Origin: a virus
Taxonomy: Duplodnaviria; Heunggongvirae; Uroviricota; Caudoviricetes
Reading direction: 5' to 3' (one strand)
IMG/VR virus record: IMGVR_UViG_2698536559_000013
Length of the DNA stretch: 10,585 bases
Below are positions 22-10,585 of this stretch, piece by piece (the stretch's first letter is position 1; each line of letters starts with the position of its first letter). The notes under the pieces were generated by a model. It was not told the DNA's origin and did not search any database. It saw only the letters and a list, made by a program, of their open reading frames with translations. Position numbers and translations under genes: made by a program.

Positions 22-3000
22 TTACGTTTTATCAACCACCAACGCACCATATTTAGACGGCCCAGATGTCTTAACATTCAATGCTCGACCACTTAATGCT
101 TCGCCTGACTTACTTTTCAACAGTAACGTAAATACCAGATTGTTGGTATCGCTCACTACAGCCGAAGATGCAGATGATGTGATCTCCAACACAGCCCCCT
201 TCACATCCGTTACGGCATCAATATTCTGGCTTGCGGTTATGCGTTTCCCATCCAGAACATACTCGGCCTGAATTGTGTACTGGCCTGATTTCGTTGCAGT
301 GAACTGCGTTGTTGCCTGTCCATGAGCATCCAGTTGCAGATTACTACTGGTCAATGATGCTCCCGTCGATGGTGTAATCGTTAAATCCACCTCGCCTGTA
401 AACGCATTGTTATTCGCATCAACCAACTGAATGTTTACTGTTGCGTTTTCACTGCCATCGGCCACAATCTCCTGTTTTGATACACTCATAGTAAGTTCTG
501 CAGAAGCAACATCGGGCACAAAAGTTAACTTAACGCTGCCAGATTCCACGCTATGGGAACCGTCAGTCACCCGTGCAGTCACCGTGTACTCACCAGCTTT
601 CACCGTTGTAAGCGGAACAGAAACATGCCCTGTTGAATCAGTCACGATATTTGTTGGTACAGATAATCCTTCAGATGAGGTGATGAGCTGAATCTTTTGC
701 CCATTGACCGACGCATTCGTATTTGTCAGCTGCACATCTAATACCGCTGCATCCTTACCATTAGCAGGAATATTGGAAATTAAACTACTGCTTTCAGGCG
801 TCAGTGACAGTGAAGCTCCGGTCATATTTGATGCAAAGGTCACTGTTAACTCAGTAGACATCTGAGAACCAGCATGAGCTGTAATCACGTAAGACCCCGG
901 AGTGGAGCTTATTAACGCAAAAATAGCATTACCATTTTCGTCAGTTGAAACAGCATGTTCACCACCAACTTGAGTTATCCCTGCTGGTAAAGACAATGTG
1001 ACAGCATAACCAGGAACAACATTGCCGAAACGGTCCGCAAGGCTTACAGTTACCATATTTCTCTGTTTTCCATCAGCCAATGCATTATTTTGGCTGGCTT
1101 CAAACTGAGAGAATGTAACCTGCTGCCGGTCCTCAATAAAGGTGATTTCTTTCTTAACACCTGAGAAATCATGACTATCAGATTTAACACCGATAGTAAT
1201 CTTACCAGCTCGTTTTGAAGTTACTGTCGCGCTATAGACACCGTCTTTTTCCGTTACAGTCCCAAACTCGACTCCTTCTGCCTGGTTAAGAGCATAAAAG
1301 CTCAGAGTGTTATCACCAGTGATTGCATTTCCTTGTGAATCCTTCACTGCCAGTTGTAGATTGATATTGTAACCAACTACCTGTTCTGCTGGTGCAGCGG
1401 TTAAAACAGCACTGACCTCAGAATCAGGTTCTGTTGCTGCTGTTTGCTTAATACTGAGAGTAAATGTTTTTCCCTGAACTTTTGCAGTTACACGTACCGT
1501 ACCAGCCTGCGAACCAGCAGTCAGAACAGAGTGATATACCCCAGCAGAGATTTCCTCTACCGCGCCTAATGACGGAGCAGTTACCGTTTCACGCTGTCGA
1601 GCACTATTGCTATCTGCTGTAAATTCCACTGACATTTCAATGTCATCAGCCAGTCCGGTTAATGCCTTACCGTTACTATCTTTCAGGCTTAATACTATCG
1701 GATAAGTGGATTGGCTATCAGCAGAGATCGTCGGCGACGAATCTCCATCCAGTGTAAAAGATGAATCCGCTGTCGAGACACCACTATTATTAACGCTGAT
1801 ATTCATAACGGCATAGTTGGAAACATTGCCTCTGTTATCCTGGACTGTGGCTCCAACATTCCACGAATTTACATCTCCGCTTTTATAAGCCGGTAAAGTG
1901 ATCTGCCATGATGTGCCATTTCCACTGATCTTACCGCCAGCCGCAGTGAATGCACTATCATTCCACTGTACAGACTTGATACCACCACTAGCATTGTTGA
2001 TTGTCAGTGTTACAGGGATGATTGATTCCCCCTCCCCCTGAACAGACTCTGGTAAGCTGATTTTCAGTGCATGCTTCTTCTTGTACTCCAGAACAATGTT
2101 GTTATTTCGTTCAACAAAATCATAACGCCGGTTCTGGACTTCTCGCATAACAGCAACATTGTCACTGCTAAGCTGTTCAGCAAGGGAAACGCCCGGGCGA
2201 TAATTAAACTCAACACCAAAGGTTGTATCGTGAACGTTGCTCTGTCCTTGCTTATGCTGTGCAGAAAACTTAATCAGAGGAACTGGTGTATAAGAAATTC
2301 CCCCAGTAACTGCGTAAGGGTTTTCCTGAAGATTATCGCTTCCAAATAACCCGACATTTTTACCATAATATTTTTCAAACTGAATGGATGCCCCTAATTG
2401 CGGATAAGCAGGTAGCCATCCTTCAGCAGAAAAATCCCAGCCATTTGCGGGTCTTTCCAGATAATCATCAATATCCCGACTGTTCTTCCAGTCAGACAAA
2501 CCAAAATAGGTATTTACACCAAGCCTGAAATAATCTCTCCAGTACTCAACCCCAAAACCTGCACGAGAGTGACTGCGACTTAAATCGTAATCATAGAAAA
2601 CATTCGCACCCAACATTGCGTTATCAGGAGTGAAATGACGAATCCCCAAACCAATATTGGTCTGATTTCGGTCATCAGTACGATGTAGTGATGTCTGACT
2701 GAATAGCACATAATCCTGAGTATCCAGCCATGGATATAAAAAGTCGAATGATGAATCCTTCAAGGAAAAAGAATCATCGACATTAAGCTTGATGCGCGCA
2801 TTGCCATATTGTTGCAACCAGTCGACGACCTCTTTTGTCGCCTGAGTTGATAAAGTATTTACAGCAAAACTACTTGCATTATTATTTGCTAGGCTCTGAC
2901 CTGCACTTGCTGCAAATGAGGCCACTTTATTTGCATGCTCATCGCTGGCATAAGTTTGCGTAACATCTTTATTACCAGATGATGCAAAACTGTTTGCTGG

Positions 3001-3102
3001 GATCAAAGAAAGAGAAACTGGAGATAATATCTGGGTAACAATTACCGACCATGTAATCGCGCCAGATGCAGTTTTTTTTAACTTTTTATTCACAGTGGTC
3101 AT
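22..3102 (-). CDS. Inverse autotransporter adhesin (intimin/invasin family), 1026 aa, apparently full length
   Basis: Long uninterrupted minus-strand ORF (stop TAA at 22-24, ATG at 3100-3102). N-terminus is hydrophobic and signal-peptide-like, followed by a sequence typical of the inverse-autotransporter beta-barrel domain (e.g. YDYDLSRSHSRAGFGVEYWRDYFRLGVNTYF, FGVEFNYRPGV). The rest is Ser/Thr/Val/Gly-rich, consistent with bacterial Ig-like (Big) repeat passenger domains. Family call is from recalled sequence features; domain boundaries were not computed. Confidence 0.85.
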   Translation of the reverse strand: MTTVNKKLKKTASGAITWSVIVTQILSPVSLSLIPANSFASSGNKDVTQTYASDEHANKVASFAASAGQSLANNNASSFAVNTLSTQATKEVVDWLQQYGNARIKLNVDDSFSLKDSSFDFLYPWLDTQDYVLFSQTSLHRTDDRNQTNIGLGIRHFTPDNAMLGANVFYDYDLSRSHSRAGFGVEYWRDYFRLGVNTYFGLSDWKNSRDIDDYLERPANGWDFSAEGWLPAYPQLGASIQFEKYYGKNVGLFGSDNLQENPYAVTGGISYTPVPLIKFSAQHKQGQSNVHDTTFGVEFNYRPGVSLAEQLSSDNVAVMREVQNRRYDFVERNNNIVLEYKKKHALKISLPESVQGEGESIIPVTLTINNASGGIKSVQWNDSAFTAAGGKISGNGTSWQITLPAYKSGDVNSWNVGATVQDNRGNVSNYAVMNISVNNSGVSTADSSFTLDGDSSPTISADSQSTYPIVLSLKDSNGKALTGLADDIEMSVEFTADSNSARQRETVTAPSLGAVEEISAGVYHSVLTAGSQAGTVRVTAKVQGKTFTLSIKQTAATEPDSEVSAVLTAAPAEQVVGYNINLQLAVKDSQGNAITGDNTLSFYALNQAEGVEFGTVTEKDGVYSATVTSKRAGKITIGVKSDSHDFSGVKKEITFIEDRQQVTFSQFEASQNNALADGKQRNMVTVSLADRFGNVVPGYAVTLSLPAGITQVGGEHAVSTDENGNAIFALISSTPGSYVITAHAGSQMSTELTVTFASNMTGASLSLTPESSSLISNIPANGKDAAVLDVQLTNTNASVNGQKIQLITSSEGLSVPTNIVTDSTGHVSVPLTTVKAGEYTVTARVTDGSHSVESGSVKLTFVPDVASAELTMSVSKQEIVADGSENATVNIQLVDANNNAFTGEVDLTITPSTGASLTSSNLQLDAHGQATTQFTATKSGQYTIQAEYVLDGKRITASQNIDAVTDVKGAVLEITSSASSAVVSDTNNLVFTLLLKSKSGEALSGRALNVKTSGPSKYGALVVDKT

Positions 3103-3351: not shown

Positions 3352-3912
3352 CTATTTCATCGCTCCTTTCAGCCCGAACTTAGCTTTGATTTCTGCGATC
3401 TTCGCCAGAGCCTGTGCACGATTTAGAGGTCTACCGCCCATGACAGGAAGTTGTTTTACTGGTTCAGGTATAGCCTCACCACGGTTAATTCGTGCGGTCA
3501 TACAGGACAGTTCATCGGCAGCCTTGCGCCGTAATTCCGCGTCAGTCAACGCATTGGCCCGCATGTTCTGATACAGGTTGGTAACCAGCCAGTAGTGCGC
3601 GTTTGATTTCCACGGATAAGACTCTGCATCCAGATACAGCCCGCGCTTCCGGCAATACTCGTAAACCATATCAACCAGCTCGCTGGCGTTTGGCAGTCCG
3701 GCGGTAACGGATGCTTCTTCCCGGCACCAGGCAACAAACTGCCCGGGTGATGGCAGGAATGGTCGATTCTGCCGACGGGCGACACGCACTCCGGCGCTCA
3801 CCTGTTCCATTGTGGTGATCCCGTTTTCCCGGAAAGCCAGAACCCACTGGCGGCGGATTTCGTTCAGTTCGTTCTGGTCCCGGTTAGCCAGGCTCGCCGG
3901 GAAAGTTGCCAG
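3352..3912 (-). pseudogene. P: C-terminal fragment of lambda replication protein P (about residues 48-233); first in-frame Met is at 3810, giving a 152-aa ORF
   Basis: Minus-strand translation reads LATFPASLANRDQNELNEIRRQWVLAFRENGITTMEQVSAGVRVARRQNRPFLPSPGQFVAWCREEASVTAGLP...RAQALAKIAEIKAKFGLKGAMK, which I recognise as near-identical to the C-terminal part of lambda P. In-frame sequence above about 3913 (RANHGYKCVRCRDADI) no longer matches P. The extreme C-terminus (GAMK) and downstream sequence also differ from lambda, where ren would follow. Confidence 0.85.
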
Positions 3913-3997
3913 TATATCTGCATCGCGGCATCGAACGCACTTATACCCGTGATTTGCTCGTGGAAGTTTTTCTCGACGGACGCGGTAACGGCCTGAA
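3913..3997. other. Junction segment of unknown origin between the P fragment and the gam-proximal lambda-like sequence
   Basis: P homology ends near 3913, and sequence I recognise as the region just upstream of lambda gam (tcactaa...cctgttttcctaatcagcccggcatttcgcgggcgatattttcacagc) begins near 3998. The roughly 85 bp between matches neither as far as I can recall. Confidence 0.4.
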
Positions 3998-4079
3998 TCA
4001 CTAATCTCCTTTCCTGTTTTCCTAATCAGCCCGGCATTTCGCGGGCGATATTTTCACAGCCATTTTCAGGAGTTCAGCC

Positions 4080-4376
4080 ATGAACGCTTATTACATTCAG
4101 GATCGTCTTGAGGCTCAGAGCTGGGCGCGTCACTACCAGCAGATCGCCCGTGAAGAGAAAGAGGCAGAACTGGCAGACGACATGGAAAAAGGCCTGCCCC
4201 AGCACCTGTTTGAATCGCTATGCATCGATCATTTGCAACGTCACGGGGCCAGCAAAAAAGCCATTACCCGTGCGTTTGATGACGATGTTGAGTTTCAGGA
4301 GCGCATGGCAGAACACATCCGGTACATGGTTGAAACCATTGCTCACCACCAGGTTGATATTGATTCAGAGGTATAA
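4080..4376 (+). CDS. gam: Gam (short GamS form, 98 aa), RecBCD inhibitor
   Basis: ORF translation [98 protein letters not shown] matches lambda Gam from its internal Met onward, with two substitutions relative to my recollection. Strong SD caggag sits 7 nt upstream of the ATG. Confidence 0.9.
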
Positions 4377-4381
4377 AACGA

Positions 4382-4911
4382 ATGAGTACTGCACTCGCAA
4401 CGCTGGCAGGGAAGCTGGCTGAACGTGTCGGCATGGATTCTGTCGACCCACAGGAACTGATCACCACTCTTCGCCAGACGGCATTTAAAGGTGATGCCAG
4501 CGATGCGCAGTTCATCGAAAAACCCGCGAAGGCAGAGAAATCACCGGACCGTGGCAGTCGCATCCCAAACGAATGTTGCGGCATAAAGCCATGATTCAGT
4601 GTGCCCGTCTGGCCTTCGGATTTGCTGGTATCTATGACAAGGATGAAGCCGAGCGCATTGTCGAAAATACTGCATACACTGCGGAACGTCAGCCGGAACG
4701 CGACATCACTCCGGTTAACGATGAAACCATGCAGGAGATTAACACTCTGCTGATCGCCCTGGATAAAACATGGGATGACGACTTATTGCCGCTCTGTTCC
4801 CAGATATTTCGCCGCGACATTCGCGCATCGTCAGAACTGACACAGGCCGAAGCAGTGAAAGCTCTTGGATTCCTGAAACAGAAAGCCACTGAGCAGAAGG
4901 TGGCAGCATGA
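4382..4911 (+). pseudogene. bet: bet (Red-beta single-strand annealing protein) disrupted by an internal out-of-frame deletion
   Basis: N-terminal 45 residues (MSTALATLAGKLAERVGMDSVDPQELITTLRQTAFKGDASDAQFI) match lambda Bet, then the frame reads non-Bet sequence to a stop at 4592-4594. The Bet C-terminal part (PKRMLRHKAMIQCARLAFGFAGIYDKDEAERIVENTAYTAERQPERD...[11 protein letters not shown]) continues in the +1 frame to 4911. The breakpoint lies near 4515-4520 (ttcatcg/aaaaacccgcgaagg). Confidence 0.85.
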
Positions 4912-8078: not shown

Positions 8079-8158
8079 GCTGGCCTGAAGCATTCGCAAC
8101 GGTAGGAATTGCAATGGCGGTAGCACTGGTTTTGTATTCAATTTGTCGCTGGGGATAA
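8075..8158 (+). CDS. Candidate 27-aa membrane peptide (MSWPEAFATVGIAMAVALVLYSICRWG)
   Basis: ATGA overlap with the stop of the 260-aa gene; SD-like caggaggtga 5-14 nt upstream. Hydrophobic core consistent with one transmembrane helix. Below the ORF-track cutoff. Confidence 0.4.
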   Translation: MSWPEAFATVGIAMAVALVLYSICRWG

Positions 8159-8279
8159 CGATGATGCTCATGCGGAAATCATCAAAAAAATGGAACTGCT
8201 AACATGATTTAGGTGGGAGCCTGGAAGATGGCTCCACATATCAACATAGATTATTTCAGGATTCCATATTTTAACTAAT

Positions 8280-9164
8280 CTAAGTTCGACTATTTGGGGC
8301 ATTGATATGCTGTAAATGATGCTTAAGCCAATTTCCAGCCGCGCCTGGTGGCGATTTTTTATTCCAAAGCAGATCGATAGAAATTGCCTTTGGCCAGCCA
8401 GGTACGTCGAGCTGAACCAGCGGTTTTTCTGTTGCAAACTCCTCAACCAGAGCACAGGGCAGAGAGCACCAGCCAAATCCCTGTACGGCCATACTGAGTA
8501 ACAACAAATAGTTAGGTGCAGACCAAACCGGTCCACGGGCAATCATCTCCCGGTTATCGATATAAGTATTAAGACGAAGTTCTCGCCATGAATGAAGTTG
8601 TTCCCGCTGGATTGTTTTTTCTGCAGACAGTGGATGTGACGCCGAAACATAAATGCCCATCCACGCTTGCATCGGTAAACGGGTTGAGCCAATATCGGTG
8701 GGGTAGTGTTCCCGAGACTCAATTAAGCCGATCTGCGCTCGTTCTTTTTGCAAAAGATCGATGACATCGACATCCTCACCAATTAAAACCTCTAACTCAG
8801 TATGTGGAAACTGACTATCAAACTGCACCATGATGTCTTCTAATAAGTCAGGGTGTAGGGTATCGGAAAGCACAAACGTCAGACGAGCTTCAGTCTCTCC
8901 GGCAAGCGAAACCGCCACCTCCTCAAGACGTTCACTGGCTGACAAAATCGCATGAACGTAACTCAATACTTTCTTTCCTTCCTCTGTCAGCACAGGTTCT
9001 CGCGAAGAGCGATCGAATAATGATATACCAAGATCGACCTCAAGATTGGCAATTGACGTACTGACTGCGGACTGACTTTTGCGTAATCTTCGTGCCGCAG
9101 CAGAAAAGGAGCCACAGGAAACCGCTTCAACAAATGTACTTAACGCTTCAAGTGAGTAACGCAT
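8280..9164 (-). CDS. LysR-family transcriptional regulator, 294 aa
   Basis: N-terminal HTH typical of LysR-type regulators (LEALSTFVEAVSCGSFSAAARRLRKSQSAVSTSIANLEVDLGISLFDRSSREPVLTEEG) followed by a co-inducer-binding-type domain. Transcribed divergently from the adjacent transporter gene. Confidence 0.9.
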   Translation of the reverse strand: MRYSLEALSTFVEAVSCGSFSAAARRLRKSQSAVSTSIANLEVDLGISLFDRSSREPVLTEEGKKVLSYVHAILSASERLEEVAVSLAGETEARLTFVLSDTLHPDLLEDIMVQFDSQFPHTELEVLIGEDVDVIDLLQKERAQIGLIESREHYPTDIGSTRLPMQAWMGIYVSASHPLSAEKTIQREQLHSWRELRLNTYIDNREMIARGPVWSAPNYLLLLSMAVQGFGWCSLPCALVEEFATEKPLVQLDVPGWPKAISIDLLWNKKSPPGAAGNWLKHHLQHINAPNSRT

Positions 9165-9267
9165 AATCTATCAATTTTTTCGATGGTATCTATCTTTTAT
9201 ATATCACATAAATCGATAAAAATCTCACAACTCCATAACGCGGTCGAAACTGTAAGAAAGGTAAGTT
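9165..9267. promoter_or_regulatory. Divergent intergenic control region between the LysR gene and the PACE transporter gene
   Basis: 103-bp AT-rich spacer between divergent start codons. Contains an imperfect inverted repeat, tttttcgat (9176-9184) and atcgataaaaa (9213-9223), as might serve a LysR-type operator. No promoter elements were verified. Confidence 0.4.
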
Positions 9268-9726
9268 ATGCAACATAATGCGATTCAACGCAGATCGTTA
9301 CTTGAGCGTATTTTTCACGCTATTTGCTTTGAAGGAATTGCCACTGCGATTCTGGCCCCCACCACAGCATGGTTAATGCAGCGAACTATACTCGAAATGG
9401 GCGGGATGACTATCTTGTTGGCTTCAACTGCAATGATCTGGAATATCATCTATAACATGCTATTTGATCGCTACTGGCCTGCTCATCAGGTAAAACGAAC
9501 TGCAAAAGTTCGTGCATTCCATGCTTTGGGCTTTGAAAGTGGATTTATCGCGATCGGCGTCATTATGGTGTCCTGGATTCTGAGCGTCAGTCTGTTACAG
9601 GCTTTTACACTAGAGATAGGATTCTTCCTTTTCTTTCTACCATATACCATGTTCTACAATTGGGCCTATGACAGCTTACGTTTACGTGTTGTGAAACAGC
9701 ATCAACAACGTATGCTTGCCAGATAA
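9268..9726 (+). CDS. PACE-family (AceI-like) small efflux transporter, 152 aa
   Basis: Two tandem repeats each beginning with the R-x-x-h-A-x-x-F-E motif (ERIFHAICFEG and VRAFHALGFESG), plus WNxxYNxxFD-like motifs (MIWNIIYNMLFD, MFYNWAYD) and four predicted hydrophobic helices. Divergent LysR partner, as in aceR-aceI. Confidence 0.8.
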   Translation: MQHNAIQRRSLLERIFHAICFEGIATAILAPTTAWLMQRTILEMGGMTILLASTAMIWNIIYNMLFDRYWPAHQVKRTAKVRAFHALGFESGFIAIGVIMVSWILSVSLLQAFTLEIGFFLFFLPYTMFYNWAYDSLRLRVVKQHQQRMLAR

Positions 9727-9800
9727 TGTTTTCCCAGGGGAGTAATGAAAATCGCGCAATAATTTTCGATATCCATACTGTACCCCCACCGACTTAACAT

Positions 9801-9827
9801 CCCCGCCCTCGCGGGGATTTCTTTTAT
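9801..9827 (+). terminator. Rho-independent terminator downstream of the PACE gene
   Basis: GC-rich hairpin ccccgc-cctc-gcgggg (9801-9816) followed by a T-rich tract atttcttttat. Confidence 0.6.
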
Positions 9828-9830
9828 CTG

Positions 9831-9857
9831 AACTCGCTACGGCGAGTTTTGTTTTAT
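9831..9857 (+). terminator. Second tandem hairpin plus T-tract; possible back-up terminator
   Basis: aactcgc-tacg-gcgagtt stem-loop (9831-9848) followed by ttgttttat. Confidence 0.4.
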
Positions 9858-9868
9858 GGGGATGATAA

Positions 9869-10036
9869 ATGCACTTCCGAGTCACAGGAGAATGGAATGG
9901 AGAGCCATTCAACAGGGTTATCGAAACAGAGAACATCAACGACTGCTATGACCACTGGATAATATGGGCGCAGATAGCACATGCAGACATAACCAATATT
10001 CGAATTGAAGAACTGAAAGAACACCAAGCCGCCTGA
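9869..10036 (+). CDS. Candidate 55-aa protein of unknown function (MHFRVTGEWNGEPFNRVIETENINDCYDHWIIWAQIAHADITNIRIEELKEHQAA)
   Basis: Below the track cutoff. SD gggga 6 nt upstream of the ATG; in-frame stop immediately upstream; followed directly by a terminator hairpin. No family recognised. Confidence 0.45.
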   Translation: MHFRVTGEWNGEPFNRVIETENINDCYDHWIIWAQIAHADITNIRIEELKEHQAA

Positions 10037-10049
10037 TGGCGGTTTTTTT
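10028..10049 (+). terminator. Rho-independent terminator/attenuator overlapping the stop of the 55-aa ORF
   Basis: gccgcc-tgat-ggcgg hairpin followed by ttttttt (10043-10049). Confidence 0.55.
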
Positions 10050-10063
10050 ATTGGAGACAAGAA

Positions 10064-10408
10064 ATGTCAGATTTGGCTATGAAGGTTTTGAAATGGCAAT
10101 CGACTGGCGATGTTGGCATCAGTAGCGCAACTCTTGCCTCAATCGCATGTGGACTGAAAAAGAATATCTATGGTCATAGCTTCGGTGCTCCACATGACGC
10201 AGCCGATTTCAGACGATGCGTTGCACTTGTTGAGCAGATTCCAGAAATCAGAGATTCATTCGACAAGGTTGCAAAGCGCGTTCCGGCATTCAAAGGCATC
10301 CTCAACGAATGGGATTCCCTCGTTGCTCTGTTGAAGTCAGAAATGAAGATACACGGAAACAAAGCACCAGAGACTTACAGAAGAATCAGCGAGCTACGCA
10401 AGGACTAA
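10064..10408 (+). CDS. Hypothetical protein, 114 aa, unknown function
   Basis: ORF with SD ggaga 6 nt upstream of the ATG. Soluble-looking, mixed-charge protein (MSDLAMKVLKWQSTGDVGISSATLASIACGLKKNIYGHSFGAPHDAADFRRCVALVEQIPEIRDSFDKVAKRV...). No family recognised. Confidence 0.6.
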   Translation: MSDLAMKVLKWQSTGDVGISSATLASIACGLKKNIYGHSFGAPHDAADFRRCVALVEQIPEIRDSFDKVAKRVPAFKGILNEWDSLVALLKSEMKIHGNKAPETYRRISELRKD

Positions 10409-10585
10409 CCATGAAATAACACCGCCTCACACTCGATGAGGCCTGTTCATTGCTCAATGATATCCAGACCTACCGCAATAATACCAACTCAATAAATGGA
10501 GATTCCAGGTGGAAGAAGAAATCTTCACTCGTGAAGAGGCAGCATCGTATCTGAAGGTAGTGTAGTGGTCAACAAAAACTGGCCA

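Follow-up and report, generated by a model that had tools for sequence, protein, structure and literature searches.

The last part of a 10,585-nucleotide stretch of viral DNA (Caudoviricetes; IMG/VR record IMGVR_UViG_2698536559_000013; hereafter the window) is a terminator-dense islet, positions 9727-10585, which holds two small genes, orf55 and ORF114, and a short frame broken off near the window end. Sequence comparison places this islet at the integrase-proximal end of a defective lambdoid prophage, which takes up most of the window and, in the Escherichia coli chromosome, occupies the tRNA-Thr/proA site. By the same comparison, the tail of the prophage is a mosaic, in which a lambda/434/HK022-type module is joined at ~10474 to an xis-int module of the mEp043 type. 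The architecture of the islet is already known, because its structural parts are annotated in the records M60848 (phage 434) and X51962 (phage HK022) and in phage lambda. Taken as a whole, the islet is very probably best explained as the distal tail of the early-left (pL) operon, with terminators controlled by N, two accessory genes independent of each other and an excisionase gene (xis) split by an insertion sequence (IS), the two accessory genes being probably silent in this prophage.

Position of the islet in a lambdoid prophage

The islet sequence is 100% identical to E. coli chromosomes, including CP039404, in which the annotated genes begin with an inverse autotransporter and what is left of replication gene P (on the opposite strand), followed by gam, bet, exo, DUF1317 (orf60a), DUF1382 (orf63), a TraR-like gene, ea22 and a dATP/dGTP pyrophosphohydrolase-DUF551 gene. 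Next come the divergent genes for a LysR regulator and a PACE transporter and the two islet genes, annotated as 'hypothetical proteins', and last an IS3-family transposase (frameshifted), a site-specific integrase, tRNA-Thr and proA. An integrase, for which an earlier note on this DNA had proposed looking past position 10585, and the tRNA-Thr attachment site are both present in CP039404 beyond the IS. An intact relative, the TUM9803 prophage, occupies the same tRNA-Thr/proA site and carries N; all on one strand, it has N, recT, an ea22-like gene, DUF551, DUF4752, the same two small genes, a gene for a helix-turn-helix (HTH) protein and int.

A megablast search of the islet against phage records matched 276 records, with mEp043 and mEp213 showing 95% identity across window positions 9795-10560. 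Phages 434 and HK022 are ~94% identical at the DNA level across 9798-10474, that is, from the terminator tL4 to 66 bp past ORF114, and the GenBank record of phage 434 (M60848) gives the order t-L4, ORF55, ORF114, t'-I, xis, int, attP core. The order tL4-ORF55-ORF114 is the same in 434, HK022 and the window. However, 434 and HK022 continue with t'I, the pI promoter and a lambda-type Xis of 72 aa, whereas the window switches at ~10474 to a module of the mEp043/mEp213 type, with a 115-aa excisionase of the HTH_17 family and an integrase beside tRNA-Thr. The window has orf55, ORF114 and the beginning of the excisionase gene in common with mEp043 and mEp213, but these phages have neither the upstream LysR-PACE cargo nor an IS in xis.

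The two tandem terminators, the 55-aa and 114-aa open reading frames (ORFs) and the short GTG-initiated frame all lie where the earlier note had put them. The features of the islet, with folding energies and z scores relative to shuffled sequences, are as follows:

9799..9828, plus strand: tL4 intrinsic terminator, hairpin 9799-9818 and T-run (-14.8 kcal/mol, z -4.65)
9830..9859, plus strand: second tandem intrinsic terminator, hairpin 9830-9849 and T-run (-11.9 kcal/mol, z -3.87)
9869..10036, plus strand: orf55, 55 aa, acidic, homologue of lambda lambdap35 and 434 ORF55
10026..10052, plus strand: orf55-end intrinsic terminator, hairpin 10026-10045 and T-run (-13.2 kcal/mol, z -3.05)
10064..10408, plus strand: ORF114, 114 aa, seven-helix protein, homologue of the ORF114 of 434 and HK022
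10424..10442, plus strand: weaker hairpin after ORF114, without T-run (z -2.5)
10509..10560, plus strand: 5' fragment of xis, 17 codons, mEp043/mEp213-type (HTH_17), in the same frame as in the TUM9803 prophage
10558..10560, no strand: TAG, left copy of a 3-bp target-site duplication
10561..10585, no strand: IS3-family terminal inverted repeat TGTAGTGGTCAACAAAAACTGGCCA, the element running past the window end

Terminators of the islet

A terminator consensus scan of 9100-10585 found 8 terminator-like sites, compared with 1.2 +/- 1.2 in dinucleotide shuffles, and the impression of a terminator-dense region was therefore well founded. The first hairpin aligns with the annotated 't-L4' of 434 (M60848) and 'tL4 terminator' of HK022 (X51962) and is the first feature of the phage backbone past the junction with the PACE cargo (~9795). 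A conserved structure is supported by stem pair 5 of the alignment, which is C-G in the window but U-A in 434 and U.G in both lambda and HK022, a compensatory series. In a five-way alignment, both upstream hairpins, orf55 and its terminator are kept in lambda, 434, HK022 and the TUM9803 prophage. The three terminator hairpins of the islet correspond, in order, to the predicted lambda terminators t3_lambda, t4_lambda and t5_lambda (PMC4195576). They have the GC-rich hairpin and U-run of rho-independent terminators of the tL4/T'I type and include the homologue of the annotated tL4.

The third hairpin overlaps the end of orf55, whose stop codon TGA (10034-10036) sits within the hairpin loop. Its sequence is the same as that of the hairpin located in lambda directly upstream of the pI promoter and xis, in the T'I position. 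In lambda, the orf55 terminator runs straight into CTTGCGTGTAATTGCGG...ATG of the pI/xis region, whereas in 434 and HK022 the orf55 terminator is followed by ORF114 and then by another hairpin, distinct from the first (t'I), after which the same pI/xis sequence comes. Because the alignment places lambda pI/xis directly after it, we infer that the orf55 terminator is the positional equivalent of lambda T'I. The name T'I for this hairpin follows the 434 annotation and Benedik et al. 1983. The observation that an ORF ends in its own terminator thus holds for orf55, but not for ORF114: the hairpin at 10424-10442, although kept in 434, HK022 and the TUM9803 prophage, is not a canonical terminator.

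A simple scan of 9100-10585 revealed no promoter for orf55 or ORF114. On the minus strand there is a promoter-like site (10544-10572), in which the IS end supplies TTGACC, facing outward, and the xis fragment supplies TACGAT; it could drive antisense transcription into ORF114.

orf55, a narrowly distributed early gene of lambdoid phages

Both islet proteins, neither of which the earlier note recognized, are homologues of annotated phage proteins, both of them found in M60848. Orf55 is 94.5% identical to lambdap35 of lambda (NP_597778), which is located between ea8.5 and xis as the last gene of the exo-xis region; orf55 of the window likewise sits at the distal end of that region, between conserved hairpins. 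The lambda gene has the same two hairpins before it and the same terminator hairpin at its end, but is followed directly by pI and xis, whereas in the window ORF114 comes in between and a different type of xis module follows. A Shine-Dalgarno-like site (GGGGA at 9858-9862) precedes the ATG by 6 nt. Pairwise ratios of nonsynonymous to synonymous substitution (dN/dS), calculated for the copies in the window, TUM9803, 434, HK022 and lambda, are 0.06-0.22. The family is narrow, with 86 phage records, almost all from E. coli lambdoids.

Orf55 belongs over its whole length to phrog_676 in PHROGs (E 1.3e-37, residues 1-55 of 55), a family of 'unknown function', and had no match in Pfam, NCBIfam or PADLOC and no significant match in PDB by sequence; literature searches by accession number found nothing. 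Lambda orf55 is outside the set tested in a CRISPR interference essentiality map (PMC10695390). The name 'ORF55' also occurs in an anti-defence preprint (10.1101/2025.06.06.658234), but only by coincidence, as it there denotes a DNA ligase of phage DruSM1 that is unrelated to the present protein. The AlphaFold2 model of Orf55 (mean predicted local distance difference test [pLDDT] score of 87) has a beta-beta-alpha-beta fold, and the protein can tentatively be viewed as a small, acidic protein-binding module that may bind a host component.

A more specific proposal is that Orf55 inhibits host RNA polymerase (RNAP) in the manner of T7 Gp2, by contacting the beta' jaw and sigma70 region 1.1. Lambda Orf55 has been modelled as Gp2-like with AlphaFold/Rosetta (PMC8614690), the beta-beta-alpha-beta fold also appears in the model made here, and the residues W9, N43, R45 and E47 discussed in that study are present in the window protein. 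However, just one of the two functionally important arginines of Gp2 is conserved and the binding is a purely computational prediction (PMC8614690). Furthermore, in our comparisons Gp2 was not the best structural match to Orf55 and had no significant sequence similarity to it, and membership in the Gp2 group is not supported. A Gp2-like role of Orf55 is conceivable but rather unlikely.

The conserved 3' end of orf55 raises another possibility, namely, that this segment together with the terminator is released as a small regulatory RNA resembling IsrK or STnc420, which would then be the functional product of the locus. Sub-threshold Rfam matches at 9986-10053 (isrK, 17.3 bits; STnc420, 18 bits) point in this direction, as does the high conservation of the hairpin and its flanks across phages; both families are prophage-associated small RNAs of Salmonella. 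The scores are, however, far under the gathering thresholds (50 for isrK and 70 for STnc420), the likeness lies mostly in the terminator hairpin GCCGCCUGAUGGCGG, and the conservation is explained by the protein-level constraint on orf55. We regard an RNA product of this kind as improbable.

ORF114, a widespread phage protein family

ORF114 has a Shine-Dalgarno-like site, as noted before (GGAG at 10053-10056, 7 nt ahead of the ATG), and its product is 96.5% identical to ORF114 of 434. The T-run of the orf55 terminator ahead of it has 7 T in the window compared with 6 in the TUM9803 prophage and HK022 (10038-10066); with 6 T, an ATG inside the hairpin is in frame with ORF114, which results in the 123-aa form found in databases (e.g. 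P0001). The protein matches phrog_1229 (E 1.9e-51, residues 1-114 on profile positions 1-113 of 116), again a PHROGs family of 'unknown function', and had no match in Pfam, NCBIfam or PADLOC. Pairwise dN/dS between homologous copies is 0.13.

The family is broad: it was found in 279 phage records, including phages of Vibrio, P22-like phages of Salmonella, the Mu-like Haemophilus phage SuMu, phages of Arthrobacter and virulent 9NA-like phages, and an exhaustive profile search yielded 2842 cluster representatives at E<=1e-3. In an alignment of 68 diverse members, with the window protein as the reference, S20, P43, D45, D48, R51, C52 and W83 are invariant and W11, G18, S21, L55 and P60 nearly so. 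The AlphaFold2 model (mean pLDDT 93.7) consists of seven helices, and in the modelled secondary structure these residues fall where helices 2 and 3 begin and one turn inside helix 3, which suggests a possible pocket.

Searches of PDB, with the single sequence or with the 68-member profile, gave nothing significant; scanning all 68 members against Pfam gave scattered noise only, and the model matched only uncharacterized proteins among predicted viral structures. In distant phages we found no conserved neighbour of ORF114, which sits among unrelated early genes. When 20 longer relatives were scanned for domain fusions, only one was informative: P0255, a protein of 558 aa from a metagenomic contig (L017), in which a CCA-adding enzyme with PolyA_pol, RNA-binding and HD domains is followed by a C-terminal ORF114-like domain. 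This fusion may reflect read-through from one phage gene into an adjacent one and, as it comes from a single 1.9-kb contig, we treat it as a hint and do not rely on it. ORF114 thus represents a large phage family with neither a Pfam entry nor a relative of solved structure, and this is the only, mildly novel residue of the analysis.

The two genes are independent accessory genes

The dN/dS values of the two genes and the confident AlphaFold2 models show that both are coding and under purifying selection, and their distribution is that of accessory genes. Among 5426 complete E. coli genomes, orf55 (called present when at least 80% covered) occurs in 2197 and ORF114 in 915, and the region does show presence/absence polymorphism, for which the earlier note had suggested a comparison. 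In two sister strains with the same prophage (CP027550 and CP148363), the IS abuts window position 9849, at the second hairpin of the tL4 pair, and 9850-10560 is gone; the deletion removes orf55, ORF114 and the 5' end of xis, leaves the right junction unchanged and looks like an IS-adjacent deletion. In CP027579, a block of LysR-PACE-tL4-orf55-ORF114 is found beside torI, within a prophage remnant at argW. By these genome comparisons, orf55 and ORF114 are accessory, dispensable for the host and mobile as modules between prophages.

The same data bear on the suggestion that the two genes work together as a cassette, either toxin-antitoxin-like or serving phage defence or anti-defence. Such a pairing would suit two small, uncharacterized genes that are neighbours on one strand in an accessory hotspot beside int. 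Nevertheless, they are adjacent in only 296 of the 5426 genomes, far from the obligate co-occurrence of a cassette; lambda has orf55 alone, without ORF114, and several Shiga toxin (Stx) phages have ORF114 after only the last ~46 nt of orf55 (matches start at query position 264). In the Vibrio, Mu-like Haemophilus, Arthrobacter and virulent 9NA-like phages, which are unrelated to lambdoids, ORF114 relatives occur alone. Furthermore, neither protein resembles known defence or toxin-antitoxin components in PADLOC, Pfam or NCBIfam. Because of the independent distribution, the strong terminator that separates the genes and the lack of PADLOC matches, we reject the cassette, which is very improbable.

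An excisionase gene split by an IS3-family element

The frame at 10509-10565 translates as VEEEIFTREEAASYLKVV and then meets a stop. The GTG also begins a 115-aa frame, VEEEIFTREEAASYLKVDKGTITQWIRSGRL..., in the intact TUM9803 prophage; this frame overlaps int, and its product matches Pfam HTH_17 (PF12728) with 35.3 bits (cut-off 27; E 1.4e-8); the homologue is annotated as an excisionase in the records of mEp043 and mEp213. Thus, in the intact homologue, an HTH domain is encoded upstream of and overlapping int, whereas the window retains only 17 codons ahead of the IS, which is inserted at 10561 and itself encodes the stop that ends the frame. Of the earlier description of a truncated HTH frame, the excisionase-type HTH start therefore stands, but the stop is the work of the IS. 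In CP039404, the remainder of xis resumes right after the element, at 96% identity, and by this comparison xis is split after codon 17 by the insertion.

The element in CP039404 is 1250 bp long and flanked by TAG at both ends (12832-12834 and 14085-14087 of the locus extracted from this genome, L001). Its ends are imperfect terminal inverted repeats that start with TGTAGTGG, the far end being the inverted ...TGGCCAAATTCAGTGTGCCACTACA, and it carries OrfA- and OrfB-like frames. The terminal inverted repeats, the 3-bp duplication and the OrfA/OrfB arrangement with a frameshift are those of the IS3 family; the copy differs from other members in being annotated as frameshifted ('IS3 family transposase, frameshifted'), that is, degraded. 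In its 1250-bp length, end sequence and OrfA the element resembles IS911, a candidate identity.

The reading of the islet as the border of another mobile element or island, separate from the prophage upstream, is very improbable and, for the islet itself, refuted by its synteny in complete phage genomes. An independent IS3-family element does begin at 10561, and the finding of the LysR-PACE-tL4-orf55-ORF114 block beside torI indicates modular mobility, but in the cargo-free TUM9803 prophage, mEp043, mEp213, 434 and HK022 the tL4-orf55-ORF114 block lies within an uninterrupted phage genome, flanked by the ea genes and xis-int, and the int and tRNA-Thr attachment site past the IS belong to the same prophage. 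What remains of this suggestion is that the DNA is mobile and polymorphic in its presence, with LysR-PACE as cargo, within a single lambdoid prophage.

Cargo and decay of the prophage

The LysR regulator gene (8280-9164, minus strand) and the PACE/AceI-like efflux gene (9268-9726) constitute a cargo within 8079-9794, which holds the place of the DUF4752 gene of the cargo-free TUM9803 prophage. Homology to cargo-free prophages and phages begins at window position 9795 (query position 69); LysR-PACE has therefore been inserted into the phage backbone or has replaced part of it, and the phage sequence already includes the first hairpin.

The remnant of replication gene P (3352-4080, minus strand) lies directly upstream of gam. 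Because P abuts gam, the genes from kil through N, cI, cro and O have been deleted, and pL and the immunity region have been lost. The bet gene is ~256 bp short at 4517-4519 compared with two otherwise 100% identical complete genomes (L001 6536-6792), and this deletion splits it into the frames 4382-4594 and 4573-4911. At the other end of the window, positions 1-25 have no match to CP039404, in which the inverse autotransporter gene continues; the corresponding ORF in the window (22-3102) encodes 1026 aa, compared with 1183 aa annotated in CP039404, and ends differently.

Proposed mechanism

By the comparisons above, 9795-10585 is the promoter-distal tail of the pL operon of the lambdoid prophage at tRNA-Thr/proA. 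Since all genes from N through int are on this strand in the intact relatives, the hairpins would act as intrinsic terminators that stop unmodified RNAP. By analogy with lambda, pL transcripts antiterminated by N would read through them, so that expression of orf55, ORF114, xis and int from pL would be N-dependent and confined to infection or induction. The genes orf55 and ORF114 are independent, dispensable accessory early genes rather than a functional pair, and the product of each might, at low confidence, bind a host component on its own during early development; in the model of ORF114, the invariant Ser, Asp, Asp, Arg and Cys are predicted at or near the starts of two helices. In the present prophage, with pL, N and the immunity region deleted, the tL4 pair would now terminate the upstream PACE transcript. 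As pL and N are gone and no promoter-like site lies ahead of them, orf55 and ORF114 are probably unexpressed here and carried as silent passengers.

Two points weigh against this proposal. The logic of terminators and N is carried over from lambda, and the promoter scan was a simple one, so that orf55 and ORF114 may have weak or non-sigma-70 promoters.

Implications

For the biology of lambdoid phages these results change little: the islet is a textbook piece of a lambdoid genome in a decayed prophage. Its terminator-dense look is accounted for by the phage terminators tL4 and T'I, at which transcription of the PACE gene presumably now stops as well. What looked like a truncated HTH gene is an IS-split xis; this split and the missing pL, N and immunity region together fit a prophage in decay. 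The proteins encoded by orf55 and especially ORF114 are widespread, constrained and confidently folded phage proteins without an assigned function, and as such they are reasonable low-cost targets for anti-defence or host-takeover screens.
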